Under the pieces are notes generated by a model, which was not told the DNA's origin, ran no database searches, and saw only the letters and a list, made by a program, of their open reading frames with translations. From NCBI GenBank assembly GCA_018823795.1, contig JAHJGZ010000081.1, positions 44,325-108,324 of the forward strand: a stretch of DNA of 64,000 nucleotides. The letters are read 5' to 3'. Of the stretch, positions 1,185 to 59,871 are shown one piece after another. Source of the stretch: Candidatus Omnitrophota bacterium. GTDB taxonomy: Bacteria > Omnitrophota > Omnitrophia > JAHJGZ01. How positions within the stretch are numbered: position 1 is the first letter of the stretch; each line of letters starts with the position of its first letter. Position numbers and translations under genes: made by a program.

Positions 1185-1414
1185 ATGAAAATCGTTATTG
1201 GAATAATTATCGGTGGGGCGATCGGGTTTGCAGTCGGTTACTACGGCAAATGACGGCATTAGTTACTGCCGCGATAGCAAAGTAACTAATTTGCCGAAAT
1301 TTGTCCCTTAAGGCAAAGCCTTATAGGGTCAAATGCGTATCAGGTACGTGCCCGATGACGAGCAACCCGATTGTCAGTACTGCCATCGGCGCACTACAAG
1401 AGCTAATGTTTTAG
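1185..1414 (+). pseudogene. Small C-x4-C membrane peptide gene interrupted by an 83-bp hairpin-module insertion
   Basis: MKIVIGIIIGGAIGFAVGYYGK then TGA at 1251-1253. The ORF resumes at 1334 (CVSGTCPMTSNPIVSTAIGALQELMF, stop 1412-1414). It is colinear with the intact paralog at 4510..4668. Confidence 0.75.
1253..1335. mobile_element. 83-bp MITE-like insert made of two hairpin modules, bounded by a direct AAATG repeat
   Basis: AAATG occurs at 1248-1252 and 1331-1335. The insert contains CGGCATTAGTTACT...AGTAACTAATTTGCCG and a CCCTTAAGGC/GCCTTATAGGG hairpin. It is absent from the paralogous gene at 4510. Confidence 0.7.
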
Positions 1415-1540
1415 AAACAGTGTCCCGACTCGTAACCGAGGGCACAATTTTACAGCGATTGTGCCCTACTCGTCGGGATTAATTCGCGCAAATAATTTAT
1501 GTCGTGCAATACACTCCATAAATTATGCGCTCATTAAAGG
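1415..1540. repeat. Hairpin-module cluster (2 modules) ending in the TCATTAAAGG connector
   Basis: Contains the CCCGACTCGTAA..GGGCACAAT/ATTGTGCCC..CGTCGGG hairpin, a TTAATTC connector, and GCGCAAATAATTTATG/CATAAATTATGCGC. It ends with TCATTAAAGG 18 nt before ATG 1549. Confidence 0.75.
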
Positions 1541-4509: not shown

Positions 4510-4668
4510 ATGAAGATCATTATCGGTATTATTATCGGCGCAGCGGTCGGATACGGGATCGGGTATTTTGGTAAATGCGCGTCGGGCACCTGCCCGCTGA
4601 CGAGCAACCCGATCGTGAGCACTGTCATCGGCGCCCTCATCGGCGCATTGGTGGCAAAGGGGGGGTAG
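4510..4668 (+). CDS. Small hydrophobic peptide with a C-x4-C motif (52 aa), intact paralog of 1185..1414
   Basis: MKIIIGIIIGAAVGYGIGYFGKCASGTCPLTSNPIVSTVIGALIGALVAKGG. Read from the sequence, as it is below the ORF-track size cutoff. Confidence 0.6.
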   Translation: MKIIIGIIIGAAVGYGIGYFGKCASGTCPLTSNPIVSTVIGALIGALVAKGG

Positions 4669-4785
4669 TATGGAAGAAAAAGAGAGGTTCGAGAATGAGG
4701 AAGAAAGTCCGTATCATCCGATGAATATTTCGCAAATGCAGGCGAACATGCTGCAGATACGTACGAAAGAAAAGGAGTAGGTGCC

Positions 4786-6015
4786 ATGGAACACTATCCC
4801 CGTGTGTATATAAAGAAGGGGAGAGATATCCCTCTTTTTGCAGGCCACCCATGGATTTTTTCAAAAGCGCTTCAGGAGGAATACCGTCTGCCGGCGGGAG
4901 AACTTGTAGCGGTTTATTCCGCTACCAATGAGCCGTTAGGGATTGGGATGTATAATCCCAAGACATCGATTCGTGTGCGCATGCTGGCGCGCGAGACGGC
5001 CGTTTGTATCGATCACGATTTTTTTATCCGCCGGTTCAGCTCTCTTGACGATGATAAACGGCCGCTCCTGCCGCCTGAAACTACCGGCTACCGCCTTGTG
5101 CACGGCGACGCTGATTATTTTCCCGGGCTCATCGTTGACCGGTACGGTGAGGTATGTGTATTTCAGATCCATACGGCAGGTATGGACCGTATGCGTAACG
5201 AAATTATTGAAGCGCTGCGTACTGCCTTCAGCCCGCGCGCAATCGTTGAACGGTCGGATATTGAGGCGCGGAAGCGGGAAGGGCTCGGCGTATTACCCGT
5301 GGCGGTCCACGAGGGGAGTATTGACGGAGTTGTGCCGTTTACCGAGAACGGCCTTCATTTTTTTGCTGACGTCGTGGACGGGCAGAAGACCGGTTTCTAT
5401 CTTGACCAGCGGAATGCGCGGATGCGCGTGGCAGGCCTTGTGCGGGGCAAAAGCGTGTTAAACCTTTTTAGTTATACCGGTGCTTTGAGTGTCTACGCGG
5501 CGCGCGGAGGGGCGGCGGAGATCGTTATGGTCGATAGTTCGAAAGAGGCGCTCTCACTCGCGCAGCGGCATTTTGAGGCCAATGGGTTTTCCTTTTCCGC
5601 GCGGTATCGATGTATGCACGGGAACGTTTTTGATATACTTCCCCGGCTTATAGAGGAGCAGAAAACATATGATTGTGTTGTCTGCGATCCGCCGGCATTC
5701 GCGAAATCACTGGAGAGTGTCGCGCGCGCGAAGACTGCCTATCTGAGCGCGAATCGGCAGTGCTGCATGCTCCTTCGTGAAGGGGGGATACTCGTGACCA
5801 GTTCCTGTTCAGGCCGTCTCACGCTAGATGATTTTTCCGGGATCATACGTGCCGCGGCGTTTCAGGCAGGCCGCGATCTCCACATTATTGATGTGCTCGG
5901 CCATCCGTATGACCATACCGACCGGCTCTCCTTCGCCGAAGGAAGGTATCTTAAGACCCTCATTGCACGAGCGGTCGGCGGGAATGTATCCTCTCGCCGC
6001 TTTGCTTCGGTTTGA
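4786..6015 (+). CDS. Class I SAM-dependent rRNA methyltransferase, RlmI-like (PUA plus MTase)
   Basis: GFYLDQRNARMRV and VVCDPPAFAKS motifs, 409 aa. The last roughly 10 codons and the stop lie inside a CCGCC/GGCGGGG hairpin module. Confidence 0.8.
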   Translation: MEHYPRVYIKKGRDIPLFAGHPWIFSKALQEEYRLPAGELVAVYSATNEPLGIGMYNPKTSIRVRMLARETAVCIDHDFFIRRFSSLDDDKRPLLPPETTGYRLVHGDADYFPGLIVDRYGEVCVFQIHTAGMDRMRNEIIEALRTAFSPRAIVERSDIEARKREGLGVLPVAVHEGSIDGVVPFTENGLHFFADVVDGQKTGFYLDQRNARMRVAGLVRGKSVLNLFSYTGALSVYAARGGAAEIVMVDSSKEALSLAQRHFEANGFSFSARYRCMHGNVFDILPRLIEEQKTYDCVVCDPPAFAKSLESVARAKTAYLSANRQCCMLLREGGILVTSSCSGRLTLDDFSGIIRAAAFQAGRDLHIIDVLGHPYDHTDRLSFAEGRYLKTLIARAVGGNVSSRRFASV

Positions 6016-6151
6016 GTAGCAGGCGGGGATCAATGATGCTGAACATATACTTTGCCAGCTGGCCGGCAAAGTATTAATTCCCTGCCTACCGGCAGGCAGG
6101 CGGCAAATTAGTTATCTTGCTGCCGCGGCGGTAACTAATGCCGTCATTGAA
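5982..6151. repeat. Hairpin-module cluster (4 modules) spanning the rlmI-like 3-prime end to the next RBS
   Basis: Module order: CTCGCCGC..GGCGGGG, ATCAATGA, GAACATA, TACTTTGCCAGC/GCCGGCAAAGTA, TTAATTC, CCTGCCTACCGGCAGGCAGG, CGGCAAATTAGTTA/TAACTAATGCCG, TCATTGAA. Confidence 0.8.
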
Positions 6152-6507: not shown

Positions 6508-6873
6508 GGCGACGGGGGACGTGTCCCCGCCTGATTCGATTGTGCACTTATTGAGGAGGTAAGCGAATCAAAGCGGCGAGGATACGTGAAGCCTAAACTT
6601 ACGGAACTATGTGACGTAAGTTTACTGGCTGAACATATACTTTGCATGTTAAAACGGGCAAAGTATTAATTCGCGCAAATGACTTACGTCGTCCTACCGG
6701 ACTCCGTAAAGTATGGCCTCATTTACGAGTTTCGTCCTGCGTGAGGCGACGGGGACGTGTCCCCGCCTGATTCGCTTGTGCACTTATTGAGGAGGTAAGC
6801 GAATCAAAGCGGCGAGGATACATTCCGACAGATACTTTAGCATCGCTACTGCTCGCTAAAGTATGTCGTCATG
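6489..6873. repeat. Hairpin-module cluster with a roughly 96-bp direct repeat
   Basis: 6489-6585 and 6726-6821 are near-identical. Between them lies the GATACGTGA-hairpin-GAACATA-hairpin-TTAATTC composite, plus a chimeric hairpin at 6673-6718. Confidence 0.8.
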
Positions 6874-6991: not shown

Positions 6992-7074
6992 TTGTCCGAA
7001 ATCACGGATATCTTTGTGATAAAGATCATTGTATCGCGTGGTTTGTGGTTGGAGTGGTAGAGGGAGGCGGTAAA

Positions 7075-10000
7075 ATGCGGTGGTGTTTCCTGAAAAATAT
7101 TTCAGTTAAGAAGTGTCTTGCCATATGTTCTGCACTCGTTTTTTTCATATTTACCTTGTACCCTTACAATACGTTTGCATTTGATGTGTCGGTGACTGCG
7201 GGGAATGCATCTATCGCCAAAGACGGCGATACTACGACGGTAACGACAGACGGCCGTGCGGTATTGGAAGGTAATACCAGTATTCTTGCAAACGAAATAG
7301 TCAAGGTCGTTGGACCCAATGATGTGCTGTTTCGCGACCTAACGGGCACGCGAACAGATTGGCTCGGAACACTCCTTGCTGAAGGTAGCGTCGTTCTTGT
7401 AAACATGCACGGCGTTTACATCGCCGAGGCAGCGAATATTGATGTCTCTTCACTTATTGCCTCAACGCTTGACATTCAAAACGAACTTTTCCTCACCAAC
7501 ACACTTTCCTTTGAAAAAGTAAAAGGTTTTGATGCGGCAGAAATTTTAAATCAAGCACACATTGATGTTGCGCAAGGGGGGTACTTGATATTGCTTGCTG
7601 ATCGTGTTGTAAACCAGGGAACACTGACTGCCTATCTGGGGAGTGTGGTTCTTGGCTCAGGTGAAAAGATGACGGTGAGTTTTGATGAACGCGGCCTTGT
7701 TAACCTGGTCGTGGACAAAGGGCTTGCTGAGGAACTGAAAAATGCGGACGGCACAACGAAAGATCAGATTGTCAATAGCGGTGAAGTACATGCCTCAGGC
7801 GGCCGCATTGAGATGACGGCGAAACTTCTCAAAACAACATTATCTCAGATCGTCAATAATGAAGGAATTATAGAAGCAGCGCGTGTGGAAAATAATAATG
7901 GTGTTATTGAACTTGTTTCAAGTGGCGGGATAAATCTGGATGGGACATTGCATGCCACGGATGTCAATGTAAAAGCTGAAGGGACACTTACGCTTCAGAA
8001 TGGTGTTGAAATTCGTGCTGAGCGTTCTCACCTCGATGCGCCCCGCGTTGAATTAGTCGGAGAAGGAGATCAATATTTTTGGGGCGACATGACTATCCAT
8101 AATTTATATTATGATGTTGGCGAGCGGGATCTTGAGTCAACGACCTATCCGAAGCGGCTCTTTTTTGAACCGGGACGTACTTTCACATTTCTTGATTCTC
8201 TTCATATTGCAGGCTCAGCCGGAGGGTACAACATTGTGACGTTAGATTCAATCGTCAAAGGAAGTCTTTGGTTTATTGATGTCGTAGTCAACGATCCGTA
8301 TCTGACGATGATCGGGGTTGGAAGTTCAGTAAATATAGGAAGTTCGATCCTGAAGGCAACGCCGAGTTCTAATTTCGGCAATACTATCGGTTGGCTCCTC
8401 AATACCGTCTACTGGACAGGGGCAGTGAATACTTTGTGGTCAAACGCGGGAAACTGGTCCGGCGGTACGCCAGATGACCAGGATGTCGTATTTCGTATCG
8501 ATGAAGGGAAAAATCGCATTTCTAATATGGATGTCGCGGATATTACGGTGGATAGCCTTGATATAGATGATTCGTGGCAAGGGACGATCAATCTTTTTGG
8601 GAACATGACGGTAACGAATGATTTTAATTTAGGAGACGATTCAACCTTCAATGAAACACAATCCTTTGCTGGTGATACCCCCTATACGGTGACGATAGGA
8701 GGAGATGATAACTGGGATGGTACGTACAATGAAGATGTGTATCGTGTAACAACAGCAGATGAGTTGGAAGGTATTCCCGGTAAGGATTTAGCAGGACAGT
8801 ATGTTCTTACGAATGATATTGATGCTTCGGGGATCGTTAATTTTATTCCGATCGGTGAGAATGCTGACGAATTTACCGGTTATTTTGAAGGAGCCGGTTT
8901 TACCATTTCTAATCTGACCATCGATCGGGCTGATGAGCAGAATGTCGGTCTTTTTGGTTTCACTGATGGCGCTTTGATCAGGAATGTTGGTCTCACGAAT
9001 GTGGACATTACGGGAGGTGCAAGCGTTGGTGGTCTTGTGGGGTATCTATGTAATGGTTCTTCTATCGATAATTCGTACGTGAGTGGCGGTACGGTTACGG
9101 GCTCTGACGAGGATGGTGAAAATGGTGAATATGTGGGCGGGCTTGTTGGATTGAGCTACTACTATACAACAATCGATAATTCCTATGCCAATGTTACGGT
9201 CAATGGAATTGAATACATTGGTGGTCTTGTTGGGCTTATGTACTATGCTTCTTCTATTAATAATTCATATACAACCGGTAGCGTTTCAGGGAGCGACAAC
9301 GTTGGTGGTCTTGTGGGGTACACCTATTATTCTACAATTGACAACGCGTATGCGACAGGAACTGTTGATGGTGCTAATAGTGTTGGCGGTCTTGTCGGGT
9401 ATAATTATTGTTATTCAACGATTAATAAGTCATACGCTACGGGGAACGTAACAGGAACTGAAAGCGGTGTTGGCGGGTTGGTAGGGTTTAATGATGACAA
9501 TGCAGAGATCAGAGATTCCTATGCTCACGGAACAGTGACCGGTGAAAGCTACGTTGGCGGTCTTGTCGGGTATAATTATAACTACTCTTCAATCGATAAT
9601 TCATACGCAACCGGTCTTGTGACGAGTGATGATGAGGATACTGCAGGAGGCCTTGTTGGTGTTGATAATAATTCAAATGGAGTCAATAATAGCTTTTGGG
9701 ATACGGAAACGACAGAGCTGGAATACAGTTCTGGCAGTGATGATGAGTATGGGATAACGACAGCTGAAATGAAGCAAATGTATACCTTTATAGATGAAGA
9801 TTGGGAGCCGGGAGATGTTTGGGTGAATCGTGAAGGTGTTGACTATCCATCTCTTTATTGGCAGCATTCATATTGGACAGGCTTGGCGAGTGATGAGAAT
9901 TGGTCAACAGCAGGGAACTGGTCAGGCCGCGTCGTTCCTGATGATACAAAGATCGCGATTTTTAATGGAGAAGGTGCGGAAAATGCTACCATAGATAGTG

Positions 10001-10971
10001 CCGTGCAGGTGGATGCGTTTTGGGTTGGGGAAAATTATGGAGATGACATAACCCAGGAAGCAGGTTTGACGATCGATTACGATTATTACCAAAATGGCGG
10101 GACATTTGATGCTGGTGAGTATTCTATTTTCGTGGGAGGGGATTGGTTAAGTAATGGAACATTTAACGCGGGAGATTCTACCGTCATATTTAACGGTACC
10201 GACCAACGAATTCATACCTCAACGACTTTCTATAATTTATCGAAACTAACGGGAGGCGGCAACACCTTGACGTTTGAGGCAGAAGAGGAACAAGAAGTCG
10301 ATGGTCTCTTAAAACTTGAAGGTACGAGTTCGACGAGTACCTTAGCATTACGTTCTTCAGAAGAAGATACGCAATGGTCGCTCAATTTACAGGGGACCCA
10401 ATCCCTTAAATATCTCGATGTACAAGATTCAGAAGGGACCGGGCTTGCGTTAGAGGCAACGGACAGTGTTGATTCATTAAATAATACTGGTTGGACTATT
10501 ACTGCCCCAACAACGACAACTACTACTGTAACTCCTCAGACGCAGCAAACGATTAAAAGTAATGTCGTACCGGGGGTTGTTGGCACTACCGGCGGAGGTG
10601 GTACTGGCGGCGGCGGTGTTGGAGGTGACGGTGGCAGTGGCAGTGGTGGCGGTGATTCTGGTGATGGTGGTGACGGTGGCAGTGGTGGCGGTGATTCTGG
10701 TGATGTCGGTGACGGTGGCAGTGGTGGCGGTGATTCTGGTGATGGCGGTGACGGTGGCAGTGGTGGCGGTGATTCCGGTGATGTCGGTGACGGTGGCACT
10801 GGTGGTGGATCTGGCGAACAAGGTAATAATAATCGACGAGGAAGAGGACGTACCCGAAGAAGAAGACATACCCAAGGCGCACAAGGGCCTATTTATGGTA
10901 ATAACTTTGGAAACGTTAATAAAGCTGGTCATATAATCCTGCATCCAGGCGGCGTTGAACTTGTGCCGTAA
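7075..10971 (+). CDS. Two-partner-secretion exoprotein (TpsA) with a haemagglutination-type TPS domain and GLUG repeats
   Basis: Signal peptide, then a TPS-like N-terminus (VLEGNTSILANE..LVNMHGVYIAEAANIDVSSLIAST). About 10 VGGLVGY GLUG-type repeats, a Gly/Asp/Ser tandem repeat, and an Arg-rich tail. The ORF opens at GTG 7045; ATG 7075 has a GGAGG upstream. Confidence 0.85.
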   Translation: MRWCFLKNISVKKCLAICSALVFFIFTLYPYNTFAFDVSVTAGNASIAKDGDTTTVTTDGRAVLEGNTSILANEIVKVVGPNDVLFRDLTGTRTDWLGTLLAEGSVVLVNMHGVYIAEAANIDVSSLIASTLDIQNELFLTNTLSFEKVKGFDAAEILNQAHIDVAQGGYLILLADRVVNQGTLTAYLGSVVLGSGEKMTVSFDERGLVNLVVDKGLAEELKNADGTTKDQIVNSGEVHASGGRIEMTAKLLKTTLSQIVNNEGIIEAARVENNNGVIELVSSGGINLDGTLHATDVNVKAEGTLTLQNGVEIRAERSHLDAPRVELVGEGDQYFWGDMTIHNLYYDVGERDLESTTYPKRLFFEPGRTFTFLDSLHIAGSAGGYNIVTLDSIVKGSLWFIDVVVNDPYLTMIGVGSSVNIGSSILKATPSSNFGNTIGWLLNTVYWTGAVNTLWSNAGNWSGGTPDDQDVVFRIDEGKNRISNMDVADITVDSLDIDDSWQGTINLFGNMTVTNDFNLGDDSTFNETQSFAGDTPYTVTIGGDDNWDGTYNEDVYRVTTADELEGIPGKDLAGQYVLTNDIDASGIVNFIPIGENADEFTGYFEGAGFTISNLTIDRADEQNVGLFGFTDGALIRNVGLTNVDITGGASVGGLVGYLCNGSSIDNSYVSGGTVTGSDEDGENGEYVGGLVGLSYYYTTIDNSYANVTVNGIEYIGGLVGLMYYASSINNSYTTGSVSGSDNVGGLVGYTYYSTIDNAYATGTVDGANSVGGLVGYNYCYSTINKSYATGNVTGTESGVGGLVGFNDDNAEIRDSYAHGTVTGESYVGGLVGYNYNYSSIDNSYATGLVTSDDEDTAGGLVGVDNNSNGVNNSFWDTETTELEYSSGSDDEYGITTAEMKQMYTFIDEDWEPGDVWVNREGVDYPSLYWQHSYWTGLASDENWSTAGNWSGRVVPDDTKIAIFNGEGAENATIDSAVQVDAFWVGENYGDDITQEAGLTIDYDYYQNGGTFDAGEYSIFVGGDWLSNGTFNAGDSTVIFNGTDQRIHTSTTFYNLSKLTGGGNTLTFEAEEEQEVDGLLKLEGTSSTSTLALRSSEEDTQWSLNLQGTQSLKYLDVQDSEGTGLALEATDSVDSLNNTGWTITAPTTTTTTVTPQTQQTIKSNVVPGVVGTTGGGGTGGGGVGGDGGSGSGGGDSGDGGDGGSGGGDSGDVGDGGSGGGDSGDGGDGGSGGGDSGDVGDGGTGGGSGEQGNNNRRGRGRTRRRRHTQGAQGPIYGNNFGNVNKAGHIILHPGGVELVP
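10624..10810 (+). repeat. 39-nt (13-aa) tandem repeat, about 4.5 copies, inside tpsA
   Basis: GGTGACGGTGGCAGTGGTGGCGGTGATTCTGGTGATG(G/T)(T/C) units encoding GDGGSGGGDSGD(G/V). Confidence 0.85.
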
Positions 10972-15962: not shown

Positions 15963-16220
15963 ATGAAGAAGACGCCTTCCATGCCCGCCCGCAATGATAC
16001 TAAGGCTAAAAAAAATAAAGACCCGTTGCATGGAGTTACGCTCGAGTGTATGGTGAAGCGTTTACAAGAATTGTATGGCTGGGAGGAGTTAGGGCGAAGA
16101 ATAAAAATAAACTGTTTTAATCATGATCCCAGTATACAGTCGAGCCTCACATTCTTACGAAGGACTCCGTGGGCCCGGAAAAAAGTAGAAAGGTTGTATG
16201 TAAATGAAGACACAACTTAG
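15963..16220 (+). CDS. VF530/DUF2132-family small DNA-binding-fold protein
   Basis: [61 protein letters not shown]. The last 5 codons are read from a hairpin module. Confidence 0.7.
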
Positions 16221-16607
16221 CGAACGAAGTGAAGCTAAGTTGTGTGTCTGAATTTACCCAGCACCCAGCAGAACAAATATGTATTATGTTTATGTTTTAA
16301 AAAATATTAAAGATAAAAATCTTTATTATTGATATACGCGTGATTTAAGTCGTCGTCATAAAGAACATAATACGAATAAAAAAAGTGGGAGTTGGTTTAT
16401 TGCGAAGCGCATAAATTAGAAATCGACGCTCGGAAGAGAGAAAAAAGATTAAAACAATATGGCCAAGCACGCAGTGGTCTTAAATCACACATTAAGGAAT
16501 CGCTGAGATAGTACAACTGGGTGCTGGGTTAATTCCTGCCTGCCGGCAGGCACACAGTAACTTATGTCGTTCATCCTGAACTTCCATAAGTTACGTGTTC
16601 ATTAAAG
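16201..16607. repeat. Hairpin-module cluster in which one module carries a GIY-YIG pseudogene as its loop
   Basis: Module order: AAATGA, GACACAACTTAGC/GCTAAGTTGTGTGTC, GAATTTA, CCCAGCACCCAG (16257-16268), the ORF, CTGGGTGCTGGG (16517-16528), TTAATTC, CCTGCCTGCCGGCAGG, ACAGTAACTTATG/CATAAGTTACGTGT, TCATTAAAG. Confidence 0.8.
16279..16511 (+). pseudogene. Degraded GIY-YIG (URI-domain, COG2827-like) nuclease gene
   Basis: MYYVYVLKNIKDKNLYY, then TGA at 16330, then YTRDLSRRHKEHNTNKKSGSW. After a 1-nt frame change near 16395 it reads VYCEAHKLEIDARKREKRLKQYGQARSGLKSHIKESLR and ends at 16511. Confidence 0.75.
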
Positions 16608-16618
16608 AGAGTATTCTT

Positions 16619-17575
16619 ATGCGGGTAATCGTTAGAAATAGTTTATTTGCTGTAATCATATTGATACTTTTTTTCTTCGGCCTGGAAGTAATAAGTAGAT
16701 TGCTACCTTTCGATTATAGGGAAGTTCATAACGGTTATACGTTAAATGATCCGTATTTGTTTTGGAAACCACATTATTTTAATGATTTGCTGAATGAAGA
16801 AAGTAAACAAGCAAACGAATACAGGATTGTAGCGTTAGGAGATTCCTGCACAGCTGGTGAAGGATGTGACGGAGAAACCTATGTTTACCTTTTAAAGAAG
16901 TTGTTACAGGAGCATATGCCGAGAAAGAATTTTAAAACGTACAACTTAGGAGTTGTCGGGTATTCGAGTTTTCAAGCACTACGGACACATAAGAGATATG
17001 GCACCTATTTGAAACCGAATGTAATCATCATATATGTAGCCTGGAATGATATATGGAGAAGTTATATAAGTGATAAACAATTGAGTAAACATTTATCGAG
17101 GTTTCATATTCTCAATAAACTGCATATTATTAAACTGATGAGGAAATGCCTGACAAAAGTTAAGCCGTATCCGAACTTTCCACTTGTTCATCGTGTCACA
17201 CGGGAAGAGATGCGAAAGAACATATTAGAAATGATTCAGATAGCGCACAATCAAAATGCACATACGATAATTATTGTTCCGCCGTTTTTATATGATCAAG
17301 AAGGAAATAAACCGTATAAAGATGACATAAAACCTTATTTAGACACTATTCGTTCTATTCGTACAGATAATAACGTAACTCTACTTGACCTGCAGGGATA
17401 CTTTGCTAACAAGACGGATATGTTTGCTATTAACCACGAAGAAGATTATATCTACAGCACAAAAGATGGGGTAGATACGATTCATCCAAGTGCAAAAGGG
17501 CATCGATGTATAGCGAATGAATTATACAAGGTCGTTTGTAGTATATTGCCGCCTGCTGGCAGGCAGGCGAAGTGA
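16619..17575 (+). CDS. SGNH/GDSL-family hydrolase with an N-terminal membrane anchor
   Basis: VALGDSCTAGEG (block I) and DTIHPSAKGH (block V). ATG 16619 was chosen because upstream codons belong to a repeat. The C-terminal PPAGRQAK and stop lie in a CCTGC..GGCAGG module. Confidence 0.75.
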   Translation: MRVIVRNSLFAVIILILFFFGLEVISRLLPFDYREVHNGYTLNDPYLFWKPHYFNDLLNEESKQANEYRIVALGDSCTAGEGCDGETYVYLLKKLLQEHMPRKNFKTYNLGVVGYSSFQALRTHKRYGTYLKPNVIIIYVAWNDIWRSYISDKQLSKHLSRFHILNKLHIIKLMRKCLTKVKPYPNFPLVHRVTREEMRKNILEMIQIAHNQNAHTIIIVPPFLYDQEGNKPYKDDIKPYLDTIRSIRTDNNVTLLDLQGYFANKTDMFAINHEEDYIYSTKDGVDTIHPSAKGHRCIANELYKVVCSILPPAGRQAK

Positions 17576-17776
17576 TGTAAAGCATAAGTATGAACATATA
17601 TTTTTCCAGCTAGCTGGCAGAGAAGTCAGAGTGGACAAAATTAATATTCGTTTCATTTACCCCGTCTCGAAAGCGGCGGCAAAGCCCTTTCAGGGATTTG
17701 CCGCCCTCGACGGGATTAATTCGCGCAAATGACTTACGTCGTCTGACGACTTCCGTAAGTCATGCGCTCATTAAAG
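17549..17776. repeat. Hairpin-module cluster (4-5 modules, some degraded)
   Basis: Module order: CCGCCTGCTGGCAGGCAGGCG, AAGTGA, a degraded TACTTT..CAGC palindrome, TCATTTA, CCCCGTCTCG..CGACGGG (17660-17714), ATTAATTC, GCGCAAATGACTTACG/CGTAAGTCATGCGC, TCATTAAAG. Confidence 0.8.
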
Positions 17777-17787
17777 TGATCTAACAT

Positions 17788-18156
17788 ATGAGTCCATGTC
17801 GAAAATGTACCGCAGAATGCTGTCGCTATATTGCTCAGCAAATTGATGCACCACGGAGTAAGGAAGCGTTCGAACATATACGGTGGTTTCTTGCGCATAA
17901 ACACGTTTCTGTGTATATCGAGAAACGAAAATGGTACTTAGAGTTTAAAACTGATTGTAAGTATATGGGGCCGGATCACACCTGTACGATTTATGCGAAA
18001 CGTCCCCAGATATGCCGTGAGCATAAGATCAGTGAATGCGAATACCACCCGGGGGCTTTTGACCATGAGGTCGTGTTTACCACACTCGAATCATTTGATA
18101 CATACCTTAAAAAACGTTTTCCCTCAAAGAAGAAAAAACGTATTAGACGTACCTAG
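17788..18156 (+). CDS. YkgJ-family (UPF0153) cysteine-cluster protein
   Basis: N-terminal CRKCTAECC motif plus downstream Cys residues, 122 aa. Confidence 0.7.
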   Translation: MSPCRKCTAECCRYIAQQIDAPRSKEAFEHIRWFLAHKHVSVYIEKRKWYLEFKTDCKYMGPDHTCTIYAKRPQICREHKISECEYHPGAFDHEVVFTTLESFDTYLKKRFPSKKKKRIRRT

Positions 18157-24966: not shown

Positions 24967-25495
24967 TACACCAAAAATTTTTAAAGAAGTAAACGGGCTC
25001 TATAAAATAATTCCGCTCATACCATTTCGAAAGACCGTCGGCGTTTCGTTTGATATCGTACCGAAAAATATTCTTTCTCATGTAGACGGCCTTGACCGGG
25101 TTATTCACCGTGGCGGGGCCCTTTCACCGGGGTCGTTGGGAGCAGTTAAAAGACCGTGGTATATGCACCCGCATCAGGAAGATCATTTGCTGGTCTTAGT
25201 CGGTATCCGGTATACCGATCTGTATACCCCGACACATGGCAGGATCGAGCGGTTTGAAGTTTCGGCCGATTGCATTAAGAAGAATGGTAAGGTTGTTTTC
25301 AAAGGGGCGGCGATTTTGTCATGGCCGCCTCATGTGTTTCACCGGATTCGAAGCAGTAAAAAATACGGTTCTGCATCACTCAACATTGCCCGGCGCTCAA
25401 AAGGGTTTGATATTAAAACAAACTTTAGTATTTATGACGTGAATACTAAAAATAAGACCTATCACGTCATCCGGGCGGGATATCTAGATCAGTGA
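24941..25495 (+). CDS. Hypothetical protein, possibly cupin-fold
   Basis: [16 protein letters not shown] resembles a cupin core. The start is uncertain because the ORF opens at 24851 inside msrAB. The stop TGA lies in a CAGTGA connector. Confidence 0.4.
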
Positions 25496-25927: not shown

Positions 25928-26287
25928 TTAATTCGTGTCAGTTGTCCCGACTCGTAAACGAGGGCACAATTTTACAGCGATTATGCCCTACTCGTCGGGA
26001 TACGTGAAGACATATTTTACAGAACGAAATGATGTAAAATATAAGTCTGAACATATACTTTGCCAGATATCTGGCAAAGTGTTAATTCGTTTCATTGCCC
26101 CCGCCAGCTACGCTTGTGTGCCTATTGGACAGGCAAGCGTAGCAAAGCGGCGGGGATTAATTCCCTGCCTACCGGCAGGCAGGCGGCAAATTAGTTACCT
26201 TGTTGGCACGGCGGTAACTAATGCTGTCATTGAAGGCGGGGATCAATGAAAATATTTTGCAACAGTTTTTCGAGACGGAAAACATGA
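25928..26287. repeat. Hairpin-module cluster (about 8 modules plus half-modules)
   Basis: Contains ATTAATTC, the CCCGACTCG../..CGTCGGG hairpin, the GATACGTGA-hairpin-GAACATA-TACTTTGCCAG palindrome-TTAATTC composite (25999-26088), an inverted CCCCGCC module, CCTGCCTACCGGCAGG, CGGCAAATTAGTTA/TAACTAATGCTG, and TCATTGAA. Confidence 0.8.
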
Positions 26288-50039: not shown

Positions 50040-50422
50040 ATGAGGCCATACTTTATGGAGTCATTGGGGACGACATAAAGTATATGGCCGAATTTATACT
50101 TTGCCAGCTAGCTGGCAAAGTATTTAATCGCGTGGCTCGGTTGAATCCAGCACAGCTGGATAAATGTATCCCCACACTAATTGTATGAAAAGAGATTTAC
50201 AAGAATTGGTGTGGGGGTACATGTCTGTATACACCAAAACCCGATTAGACAATGTTTTTGTATGCTGTTTAACGGGATACGTGAAGCCCAAATTTACGGA
50301 GCAGAATGCGACGTAAGTTTGTTGGCTGAACATATACTTTGCCAGCTGACTGGCAAAGTATTAATTCGACCATATCACTTACGTTGTCATCGTGACACCG
50401 TAAGTAATGGTCTCATTAAAGG
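50037..50422. repeat. Hairpin-module cluster (about 8 modules) filling the entire bamA-skp spacer
   Basis: TAAATGA, then GGCCATACTTTATGG.., GAATTTA, the perfect palindrome TACTTTGCCAGCTAGCTGGCAAAGTA, and CCCCACAC(T)AATTG/CAATTGGTGTGGGG. The GATACGTGA composite follows (50276-50367), then GACCAT..ACTTACG/CGTAAGTAATGGTC and TCATTAAAGG. Confidence 0.85.
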
Positions 50423-50432
50423 AGAGCGTACC

Positions 50433-50957
50433 ATGAATCGACAAGTGAGAAAGTATGGCGTAATCGGTGTTGTAGCAGTGTGTTGTATCTTTCTTTTTTC
50501 AGGCATTAGTGTAGCAGGAGAAAAAACGGGATACGTTAATATGGAAGTATTATTTGATAGTTATGAAAAGACAAAAGATGCCGATGCCGCGATTACTCAA
50601 TTAGCGAATGCAAAACAAATCGAACGTGATGCATTGGTTGAAAATATTCGCCGCATGAAAGATGAAATGGTCGTTCTTGCAGAGGAAGGCGAAGCGCGAC
50701 GAAAAAAGCAAGAGGACATAGATCGGCAAATAAAAGATTTACAGGCATTTGATGAAGAGACGAGAAAAGACTTGCGAGGGGTACGCGATGAGAGGGTAAA
50801 GGAAATATTTGATGATCTCGATGCGGCGATCAAAACGTATGGGCAGAAAAAAGGATATGATTTAATCTTTAATAACCGTGCGCTTGCTTACAGCAGTGAC
50901 GATTTTGATGTGACCGATGCTATTTTAAAAGACCTTAATAGTAATTATAAAAAATAA
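50433..50957 (+). CDS. skp: OmpH/Skp-family periplasmic chaperone
   Basis: Signal peptide then a coiled-coil, located between bamA and the lpx genes. ATG 50433 was chosen because upstream codons of the track ORF are repeat DNA. Confidence 0.75.
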   Translation: MNRQVRKYGVIGVVAVCCIFLFSGISVAGEKTGYVNMEVLFDSYEKTKDADAAITQLANAKQIERDALVENIRRMKDEMVVLAEEGEARRKKQEDIDRQIKDLQAFDEETRKDLRGVRDERVKEIFDDLDAAIKTYGQKKGYDLIFNNRALAYSSDDFDVTDAILKDLNSNYKK

Positions 50958-58980: not shown

Positions 58981-59871
58981 GTGTTGTTTAAGGCTCGACG
59001 ATATCGAATTGATTTTTCAAAAAAAAACAAAGTCCTCATTGTGGGGATTTTAAATATCACTCCGGATTCTTTCTCAGAAGGGAAGCGTTATTTTAAGAAA
59101 AACGCTGCGTACCGACGAGCGCTTGAGATTGAAGCTGAAGGGGCAGCTATTATTGATATCGGTGCTGAATCGACGCGTCCTGGTTCAGCAGGCATATCAG
59201 CATCTGAAGAACTAAAAAGAATTATTCCTGTTTTAGACAAAGTGGTGCGTAAAATCAAAATTCCGATTTCGATTGATACGACCAAATCAGATGTTGCATA
59301 TGAATGTCTCCGGAGAGGCGCCGCAATTATTAATGACATAAGCGGGCTTACGAAAGACCCTGCGATGGCATCAGTGGTTAAAAAGTTTAAGGCTGGCCTC
59401 GTCATCATGCATATGCGCGGAGAACCAGCAACAATGCAGAAGTATACGGCATATAAAGACTGTGTCAGAGAGGTGATCAAGGAATTGAGGGGCCGCATGC
59501 AGATTGCACGTTCTGCGGGAGTGGCATTTGATCACATTATTGTTGATCCCGGCATTGGGTTTTCGAAGACGGTAAAACAAAATTTAGAGATTATTAGGAA
59601 TATAAAAAAGTTTCATGTTTTGAAAAGGCCTCTTCTTATTGGGCCTTCACGGAAATCGTTTATTGGAAAAGTTTTGAATCGTACGGTGAACGAGCGTTTG
59701 GCAGGGACCTTAGCGTCGGTGGCAGGTGCTGTTGATGGTGGTGCCGAGATGATACGCGTACACGATGTACGGGAAACGAACGATTTTTTAACGATGAGAA
59801 AAACAATAAATGAAGCCAAAAGTTGCGGAACCTGCCTGCCGGTAGGTAGGCGAAGTGATCGTAACTTTTAG
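58981..59871 (+). CDS. folP: Dihydropteroate synthase
   Basis: GILNITPDSFS, IIDIGAESTRPG, DPGIGF, RVHDV. The last roughly 14 codons read through a CCTGCCTGCCGG module. Confidence 0.9.
   Translation: MLFKARRYRIDFSKKNKVLIVGILNITPDSFSEGKRYFKKNAAYRRALEIEAEGAAIIDIGAESTRPGSAGISASEELKRIIPVLDKVVRKIKIPISIDTTKSDVAYECLRRGAAIINDISGLTKDPAMASVVKKFKAGLVIMHMRGEPATMQKYTAYKDCVREVIKELRGRMQIARSAGVAFDHIIVDPGIGFSKTVKQNLEIIRNIKKFHVLKRPLLIGPSRKSFIGKVLNRTVNERLAGTLASVAGAVDGGAEMIRVHDVRETNDFLTMRKTINEAKSCGTCLPVGRRSDRNF

Follow-up and report, generated by a model that had tools for sequence, protein, structure and literature searches.

Evidence for the insertion of a mobile two-hairpin unit at a copy of its flanking motif in a DUF6132 gene of Candidatus Omnitrophota, with a small GIY-YIG nuclease as candidate mobiliser

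The 64,000-nucleotide (nt) stretch analyzed here, referred to as the window, belongs to a metagenome-assembled genome of Candidatus Omnitrophota, whose proteins carry the accessions MBU18629xx (locus tags KKH94_) and MFH13845xx. Near its left end lies a small membrane-protein gene of the DUF6132 family, DUF6132a, which is split into two parts by 83 nt that form two hairpins. The open reading frame (ORF) 1185..1253 translates as MKIVIGIIIGGAIGFAVGYYGK and then reaches a TGA, and the frame closing at 1414, which is not the same frame, translates as ..KCVSGTCPMTSNPIVSTAIGALQELMF*. A first-pass annotation of this DNA had proposed that the gene is split, that its remainder resumes 83 bp further on exactly where an intact paralogue predicts, and that a direct AAATG repeat bounds the insert. 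Indeed, alignment of 1185-1414 to the paralogue at 4510-4668, DUF6132b, with MAFFT gives one clean gap of 83 nt at Gly-Lys|Cys, and the pentamer is present at 1248-1252 and 1331-1335. The register is ambiguous inside this 5-nt repeat, so that insert coordinates of 1248-1330 fit equally well; in the register used here, integration took place between G1252 and C1336, within the native codons GGC AAA TG|C, and the precise empty site would read TACGGCAAATGCGTATCAGG.

When 1185-1252 and 1336-1414 are joined, the result is a 48-residue protein that matches Pfam DUF6132 (E = 2.3e-11) over residues 2-33, and thus across the junction at residues 22/23. All 22 homologues found in a search of 5.8 billion proteins are uninterrupted, have lengths of 50-66 residues (mostly 52-56), and share an invariant G-K-C; none has the 83 bp as coding sequence, which the first-pass annotation had named as the outcome that would speak against an insertion. 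At the DNA level, the site is likewise contiguous in the genome's two other paralogues and in the closest foreign homologue, where it reads GGT AAA TGC, GGT AAA TGT, and GGA AAA TGC. An uninterrupted allele of DUF6132a itself, which the same annotation had suggested looking for in relatives, was not found among the 5.8 billion proteins, where homologues reach 88% identity at most, and the closest foreign homologue is not syntenic. DUF6132b shares 75% nucleotide identity with DUF6132a at a saturated synonymous divergence (dS ~1.8), which marks it as an old paralogue; as judged from this divergence, it is a proxy for the empty site rather than an empty allele.

A second assembly, GCA_043813055.1, contains the split gene with 100% identity, and since this assembly differs from the window elsewhere, an artefact of assembly is very unlikely. 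The source is a repeat-rich metagenome-assembled genome, and the two assemblies do differ in repeat clusters; however, an overlap of 5 nt cannot misjoin k-mer graphs. Contigs of sample SRR2544004 are identical to the window, and those retrieved miss the split gene, with some stopping within repeats. An ancestral origin of the 83 nt as a feature of the gene is contradicted by all homologues, which do without the segment, and by the in-frame stop and frame shift that it brings. That no insertion occurred, whether through artefact or ancestry, is therefore the least credible of the explanations that we weighed, and extremely improbable.

The first base of the insert converts TGC to TGA and the 83 nt also shift the frame, and DUF6132a is thereby inactivated. 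Relative to DUF6132b, its ratio of nonsynonymous to synonymous substitutions (dN/dS) is 0.06, and every family-invariant residue is retained in both halves, which indicates that the gene was under selection until recently. There is, however, a second lesion, which makes the earlier description of an insertion "caught in the act" too strong, as does the presence of the insertion in both assemblies. Beyond 1395, the gene is no longer homologous to paralogues b and c, and its final ~10 codons, including the end of the second transmembrane helix, have been replaced by unrelated sequence that adjoins an inverted unit of the same hairpin family at 1423-1537; the resulting tail, QELMF, is not family-like. 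DUF6132a thus carries two module-associated lesions, and two intact DUF6132 paralogues remain in the genome.

These features bear on whether the gene could still be expressed by programmed translational bypassing of the kind known from phage T4 gene 60 and the yeast mitochondrial 'byps', with take-off at AAA 1248-1250 and landing at AAA 1331-1333. The two codons match, a stop directly follows the take-off codon and is itself followed by a stable hairpin, a G-rich stretch precedes the landing codon, and all invariant residues survive on both sides; moreover, bypass cassettes are themselves described as mobile elements (bioRxiv 10.1101/2022.08.31.505936). However, matched codons arise automatically when a unit inserts at a pentamer that is then repeated, the gap of 83 nt compares to 50 nt in gene 60, the 3' tail beyond 1395 has been replaced together with the end of the second transmembrane helix, and the two intact paralogues make loss of this gene tolerable. 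We regard bypassing as very improbable.

The insert folds, as had been annotated, into two hairpin modules, with a folding free energy (dG) of -23.7 kcal/mol and z = -4.9; none of 200 shuffled sequences is as stable. The first module is a two-tier hairpin, hpA, directly preceded by the tag AAATGA, and the second, hpB, follows after a connector (Table 1). CAAAT of the unit's tail pairs with ATTTG of the connector, lengthening the hpB stem. The hpA of the insert is 41/43 identical to a copy at 10919-10961 of L038, an 11-kb stretch on another contig of the window's genome, 38/43 identical to window 6101-6143, and 36/43 identical to 26184-26226. The L038 copy also shares the connector and the start of hpB (..CTTGTCCCTT), and the homologous unit there ends ACAGATGA. 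The 83-nt unit lacks inverted repeats at its ends (ACGGCATT.. and ..TAGGGTC), and the insert contains no ORF of its own. A comparison with Rfam gave no match at gathering thresholds besides one tRNA and none at E <= 1 over 1100-2200, and a blastn search of a phage collection with 1240-1545 gave no match.

Table 1. Coordinates of the split gene, of the inserted unit, and of related features (hpA', hpB', and tag' are inverted copies).
Feature	Coordinates	Strand	Description
ACR3 gene			upstream of split gene
DUF6132a 5' half	1185..1253	+	22 codons, then premature TGA; final A of TGA is base 1 of the insert
Left AAATG	1248..1252	+	native gene sequence, Lys22 codon plus first two bases of Cys23; presumed target
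Inserted 83-nt unit	1253..1335	+	in the register 'inserted 3' of AAATG'
hpA	1254..1296	+	4-bp outer stem (CGGC/GCCG), 10-bp inner stem, 13-nt loop, 2-nt 3' bulge; covariance score 60.5 bits
Connector	1297..1304	+	AAATTTGT, 8 nt; family consensus GAATTTAT
hpB	1305..1328	+	short CCC...GGG hairpin in the B slot; sequence unique in window
Right end	1329..1335	+	TCAAATG, contains right AAATG copy
DUF6132a 3' half	1336..1414	+	Cys23 to Phe48, then TAG
Inverted A-B unit	1423..1537	-	directly downstream of DUF6132a; hpB' 1423-1479, connector, hpA' 1486-1530 (68.8 bits), tag' TCATTAA
DUF6132b	4510..4668	+	intact 52-residue paralogue, proxy for uninterrupted sequence (alignment, Pfam)
Full-length family member	16200..16606	+	tag, hpA, GAATTTAC, arm CCAGCACCCAG, GIY-YIG pseudogene, arm CTGGGTGCTGG, GTTAATTC, small hairpin, hpA'(-), TCATTAA
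Full-length element of L043 (GCA_042570265.1)	9926-10308		pfkB...TAA-ATGA, hpA (68.5 bits), GAATTTAC, arm CCAGCAC, 77-residue ORF, arm GTGCTGG, GTTCAATTC, hpA' (54.6 bits), TCATTGA

The insertion turned AAATG|C of the native gene into AAATG|A-hpA on the left and ..CAAATG|C on the right. This single junction is compatible with three models. In the first, an element whose own end is AAATG entered 3' of AAATG; in the second, an element starting with AAATGA entered 5' of AAATGC; in the third, 5 nt were duplicated. The tail AAATG is probably borne by the element and the left copy native to the gene, since CAAAT pairs with the connector and resembles the tail of the L038 unit. The annotated idea that the connector may be the insertion target stands insofar as the native AAATG equals the flanking motif of the family, whereas duplication and right-end identity fit this junction alike.

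The hairpins of the insert belong to a repeat family that populates the window. A two-tier-hairpin finder detected ~24 copies there compared to 0-1 in shuffled sequence. In an alignment of 23 hpA copies, 96.8% of the stem cells are paired, 10 of the 14 stem pairs change on both sides, and compensated cells number 81 compared to 21 in shuffles; when the partner columns are shifted by one to three positions, pairing drops to 25-41%. A 2-nt 3' bulge separates the outer from the inner stem in essentially all copies. A covariance model built from this alignment finds 25 copies in the window (15 on the plus and 10 on the minus strand), one in each of the upstream and downstream flanks, three in L038, and four in L043, a locus in another Omnitrophota genome (GCA_042570265.1); there are none in 36 kb from two further Omnitrophota genomes (L039 and L040) and none in 316 kb of viral contigs. 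Directly 5' of 30 hpA copies, TGA occurs in 27 (background 1.9%) and AATGA in 18 (background 0.19%), in keeping with the view that AAATG(A) is the commonest connector at cluster edges; five of the 30 copies have a CGTGA tag instead and carry ATACGTGA. The 3' flank of most copies is GAAyWWrT. hpA is thus a structure-constrained family with a conserved TGA tag.

The 25 window copies all lie in intergenic clusters or at gene ends. These clusters mix hpA, hpB, and two further hairpin types, with tags pointing outward to the flanking genes. The recurrent unit is mostly tag-hpA-connector-hpB-(AT)AAATGA, which places AAATG(A) on both of its sides. Inside units, anywhere between 0 and 8 of 8 flank positions are identical, and a target duplication of fixed length is accordingly absent. 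Several other classifications of the modules were considered and rejected: integron attC sites, because the flanks lack mutual complementarity of the R''/R' type; intrinsic terminators, because T-runs are absent; and a target duplication by ATCAGTGA on both sides of the unit at 25490, because the left flank resembles the remnant of an older hpB tail. An exact hpA pattern, GCATTAGTTAC-N14-16-TAACTAATTTGCC, had no match in 185,579 species genomes, a set that does not include the window's genome. A corresponding hpB pattern, CGCCGCTTTG-N10-40-GGCGGGGNNNAATGA, had 12 single matches in genomes and 14 in Joint Genome Institute (JGI) metagenomes, which likewise do not include the window's genome, and all of these matches were dismissed as chance or as a conserved Acidobacteria gene.

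In many cases, the upstream gene takes its stop codon from the tag. Six genes stop inside a tag, either at its TGA (1749, 15764, and 25495) or at a TAA (32096, 50039, and 61234). Two such genes, encoding BamA and HisG, are full-length by Pfam, and the tag has therefore been placed exactly on native gene ends; in L043, the TAA of pfkB similarly lies within TAAATGA. The tag offers no stop in the third reading frame, and translation there continues into the module. FolP gains 19 module-encoded codons in this way, and VF530, RlmI, and a GDSL lipase also terminate in modules. For RlmI, VF530, the GDSL lipase, and FolP, the last 4-19 codons and the stop are taken from modules at 5993-6036, 16200-16220, 17538-17575, and 59806-59871.

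The tag of an inverted hpA (TCATTAA, TCATTGA, or TTATTGA) directly adjoins the Shine-Dalgarno sequence (AAGGA, AGGAG, or GGGAG) and start codon of the downstream gene. Such abutments are seen in the window at 1531-1548, 16599-16620, 17768-17790, and 50413-50435, in L043 at 7590-7606 and 10302-10313, and in L038 at 6624-6645. The first of them concerns the inverted unit behind DUF6132a, whose tag' adjoins the Shine-Dalgarno sequence of the following gene. That gene (66 residues, no known family) and DUF6132a are both preceded by an identical 16-mer, AAAGGAATAAACAATG, which comprises the Shine-Dalgarno sequence and the start codon; its two copies, at 1172-1187 and 1536-1551, bracket the split gene and the inverted unit. 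At L038 75-103, TTAATGA-CGGGGGGG-ATAAATGA resembles a unit without hairpins, and the ATG in its tail is the annotated start of a PEGA-domain gene.

The family also includes a much longer form. At 16200-16606 of the window, the arms of a long hpB enclose a decayed small GIY-YIG gene, a pseudogene at ~16279-16508 with an in-frame TGA at the glycine of YIG and a +2 frameshift in an A-run. The C-terminal ORF fragment alone gave 10 phmmer matches (E = 5e-6 to 7e-4) among 1.8 billion representatives, and seven of the eight that were scanned against Pfam are PF01541, five of them above the curated cut-off. With tblastn, the whole ~78-residue protein is covered in two frames. A repaired query of 79 residues has 53 homologues (best E = 4e-20), including a 'GIY-YIG nuclease family protein' of Candidatus Omnitrophota and of Candidatus Velamenicoccus archaeovorus.

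L043 contains an intact counterpart, with a 77-residue GIY-YIG gene at 10001-10234 (PF01541; protein MFC1709339.1) inside an element whose tag' TCATTGA is followed by AAG ATG, the start of murI. The host genes on both sides differ between the two genomes, from which it follows that the whole structure moved as a unit. The noncoding motifs are nearly identical between the genomes, whereas the GIY-YIG proteins are only ~60% identical. At 7425-7594, L043 further holds a gene-less version, tag-hpA-GAATTTAC-hpB-GTTCAATTC-hpA'-tag'; inverted structures bound only this full tag-hpA...hpA'-tag' form. A second, different small GIY-YIG gene (90 residues) is present at L043 19262-19640, followed at the contig end by tandem copies of a ~59-nt repeat with the hairpin GGGGGCGTGCCCC. 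A 15-mer from an arm of the GIY-YIG element matched 36 viral contigs, none of which has hpA; these were discarded as chance matches and served as a negative control for the covariance model. We found no description in the literature of GIY-YIG genes nested in palindromic repeats, nor of such repeats in Omnitrophota.

A mobile two-hairpin unit that inserted at its own flanking motif is supported by these observations, and the earlier view that the modules have been mobile thus holds: a unit of the window's own repeat family sits in a once-intact DUF6132 gene. The enzyme responsible is a separate matter. The first-pass annotation had pointed to single-stranded Y1 (HUH) transposition, in which a REP-associated tyrosine transposase (RAYT; REP, repetitive extragenic palindromic) or an IS200/IS605-type TnpA encoded elsewhere would recognize the folded hairpins and act by 'peel and paste'. 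In the donor, the left flank and the right end would each be cleaved 3' of AAATG, and a single-stranded circle would enter 3' of the target AAATG without duplication. This geometry fits exactly, with AAATG|A-hairpin on the left and ..CAAATG|C on the right, and the indications that the tail CAAAT is element-borne (its pairing with the connector and its homology to the L038 tail) favor right-end identity over duplication. Moreover, an unpaired tag immediately 5' to an imperfect palindrome with a bulge resembles the combination of GTAG and bulge in REPs that TnpAREP requires (PMC8266576), and GTAG termini of REPs, which occur within genes, also supply stop codons (PMC3733652).

However, the Pfam tables of the called genes list no Y1, DDE, serine, or tyrosine recombinase in ~82 kb around the locus (the window plus 8-9 kb per side) or in the 11 kb of L038. 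The tag is neither GTAG nor CGTC. Nearly all window genes are on one strand, and the orientation of hpA is nevertheless 15 plus to 10 minus, which does not agree with a lagging-strand bias like that of IS608 (PMC5027513). The sole gene nested in the hairpin architecture, in both genomes, encodes a GIY-YIG nuclease. A Y1 mechanism is accordingly not supported, and we consider it unlikely; a mechanism based on the GIY-YIG nuclease is favoured but unproven.

It is also conceivable that no dedicated enzyme was involved and that template switching or microhomology-mediated repair copied the unit into the gene. A nascent ..AAATG end would anneal to the tag of a donor unit, copy hpA and hpB up to the tail AAATG, and switch back. 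Donor units bear AAATG(A) on both sides and would offer 5 nt of microhomology at both switches, and the clusters display dynamics of a recombination type, with direct duplications of 65-97 nt flanking module groups and a 131-bp indel between 65-nt repeats distinguishing the two assemblies. Copying of this kind does not account for the conservation of tag, bulge, and stem geometry across numerous compensatory changes, for the near identity of the cis motifs next to GIY-YIG proteins of ~60% identity, or for the occurrence of the complete structure at unrelated loci of two genomes. We find this explanation quite unlikely.

Our preferred reading, on which we are evenly divided between acceptance and doubt, is that the 83 nt are a gene-less, one-sided derivative of a hairpin-bracketed mobile family present in two Omnitrophota lineages, and that it was moved in trans, with the GIY-YIG enzyme as the best candidate. 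The complete form of the element would be tag-hpA-connector-arm-[77-residue GIY-YIG nuclease gene]-arm-connector-hpA'(inverted)-tag'. Units would be moved in trans by a nuclease that recognizes structure and tag, most plausibly the element's own GIY-YIG enzyme. It might nick the donor at the tag beside hpA and the target at a tag-like (A/T)AATG, after which host replication or repair could finish the joining or copying. Tolerated copies would then accumulate on stop codons and gene junctions, because the motif contains TAA and TGA, and the DUF6132a copy would have struck inside a gene and persisted thanks to the two remaining paralogues. On the basis of sequence, the interpretation of the hairpin modules as cis sites and gene-less derivatives of a GIY-YIG-encoding element, with the nuclease as a candidate, is likewise favoured but unproven. 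More tentatively still, and here we would sooner doubt than accept, the modules could be the ends and offspring of an undescribed class of element whose only gene, in the hpB loop, encodes a ~77-residue GIY-YIG nuclease that acts at the TGA tag beside hpA, with the element homing to (A/T)AATG(A), a motif of stop codons and gene junctions.

Several points weigh against this interpretation. Only two copies were found to contain a GIY-YIG gene, that of the window's genome is dead, and no intact copy from this genome is among the 53 homologues. The nuclease gene could be an invader of hpB rather than the mobiliser. We know of no strand-transfer activity for a 77-residue GIY-YIG domain, and the joining step is one that we infer in its entirety. 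The inserted unit has no second hpA', which leaves the processing of a half-unit unexplained. Flanking octamers resemble each other only modestly more within units than between units (permutation p = 0.013), and the connector-tail pairing averages 4.6 of 6 positions with covariation that is not significant (p = 0.075). Finally, exact patterns recovered the family neither from the species genomes nor from the JGI metagenomes, and the sample is therefore small.

The closest known kind of repeat is that of REPs, of the bacterial interspersed mosaic elements (BIMEs) that they form, and of REPINs, from which the tag and the associated gene differ. As in those systems, the modules are short, imperfect, extragenic palindromes in very high copy number; a conserved, unpaired tag immediately precedes the hairpin, and the bulge in the stem is conserved too. 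Hairpins of several types make up mosaic clusters in which orientation alternates, the tag often provides the stop codon of the upstream ORF, and occasional copies are intragenic (PMC3733652; PMC8266576; PMC3116915). REPs have an unpaired GTAG or CGTC tetranucleotide at one end (PMC3733652), and their stem bulge or mismatch is needed for recognition (PMC8266576). In the Omnitrophota family, by contrast, the tag is (A/T)AATGA or ACGTGA, the hairpin is two-tiered with 4 bp, 10 bp, and a 2-nt 3' bulge, and the recurrent unit is a heterodimer of hpA and hpB in direct order with fixed connectors. The host phylum differs as well: examples of REP/BIME hosts with a RAYT (TnpAREP) are E. coli, Pseudomonas, and Stenotrophomonas, whereas no RAYT was seen in the ~82 kb and 11 kb searched here, and the nested gene is that of the 77-residue GIY-YIG nuclease.

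IS200/IS605 elements and their gene-less derivatives resemble the unit in having two different hairpins, one near each end, and in inserting beside a particular sequence of 4-5 nt, with a seamless junction that agrees with the absence of target duplication (PMC3597680, PMC5934647, PMC5027513). The observed AAATG|A...CAAATG|C is compatible with such duplication-free insertion, and a 5-nt duplication fits equally. No tnpA or tnpB was found in the ~82 kb and 11 kb, however, there is no orientation bias, and the tag abuts the hairpin. In IS608, the spacing between tag and hairpin is ~10-19 nt, and target and right end differ, whereas here the target pentamer equals the right end of the element.

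The GIY-YIG-containing form shares with GIY-YIG homing endonuclease genes (T4 seg, I-TevI) that a small GIY-YIG gene is the sole ORF of a selfish segment between host genes, in the same orientation. It differs in that the protein is a bare catalytic domain (~77 residues) with no DNA-binding domain, that inverted structured hairpins, each with a conserved tag, enclose the gene, and that gene-less derivatives are present at ~0.4 copies per kb; homing endonuclease genes are not known to have such multicopy nonautonomous derivatives. Rickettsia palindromic elements and intragenic REPs likewise place a palindromic repeat within a protein-coding gene, but they are in frame and the ORF remains functional (PMC3733652), whereas the present 83 nt introduce a TGA and a frame shift. 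Miniature inverted-repeat transposable elements such as Correia/NEMIS, RUP, and ERIC are comparable in being ~80-400 bp long, noncoding, and intergenic, and in being able to supply translation signals to neighbors; the 83-nt unit differs from them in having no terminal inverted repeats, in the varying length of flank identity, and in that no partner DDE transposase was found in the ~82 kb and 11 kb. Bypass cassettes of the T4 gene 60 type share the AAA-TGA-hairpin ... AAA-TGC geometry, which follows automatically from insertion, and differ in that the downstream ORF here is not intact, its 3' tail having been replaced.

The locus provides a base-precise integration junction of a tagged hairpin repeat, in which the target pentamer equals the repeat's own tag and the piece that moved is hpA plus hpB. 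The means by which REP-like repeats propagate are not yet well understood (PMC8266576), and for one large REP super-family no transposase is known (PMC3733652). The 77-residue GIY-YIG nuclease offers a concrete candidate enzyme in place of the expected Y1 transposase. If the more tentative reading of an undescribed class of element is correct, this would be a REP/BIME-like system run by a nuclease family not known as a mobiliser of bacterial repeats, and the DUF6132a insertion would be the first mapped integration junction of such an element. The repeats reshape a compact genome, with tags serving as stops (BamA, HisG), C-termini replaced (FolP, RlmI, GDSL lipase), and a redundant paralogue destroyed, in a phylum that has no cultured model for such work.

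Some further observations concern repeats and duplications around the modules. A segment of 131 bp at ~1813-1943 of the window is missing from GCA_043813055.1; it equals one copy of a 65-nt direct repeat (hpA, connector, and start of hpB) plus the sequence between copies, and the difference is either a real indel in the module cluster or a collapse in one of the assemblies. Direct duplications of 70-97 nt, each comprising hpB and flank, and one of them extending over the final 19 nt of a gene, bracket other module groups at window 6489-6585/6726-6821 and ~32153-32222/32318-32387 and at L038 ~10838-10910/10966-11037. Short fixed target duplications do not explain this pattern.

An 88-nt direct repeat of 94% identity (2191-2278 and 4738-4825) duplicates the region upstream of rlmI and its first codons; its copies flank trkH-trkA-DUF6132b, and the left one leaves a truncated rlmI' ORF (MEQYSRVYIKK...). 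That 1185-2300 as a whole is a simple duplicate of 4510-4830 was considered and rejected, because only this 88-nt piece from the 5' end of rlmI is 94% identical and the rest is not colinear. Finally, a Glug-domain gene at 7045-10971 contains tandem coding repeats with periods of 9, 15, and 24 nt at ~10551-10808, and is 39 nt (13 codons) longer in GCA_043813055.1, where it encodes 1311 residues compared to ~1298 in the window.

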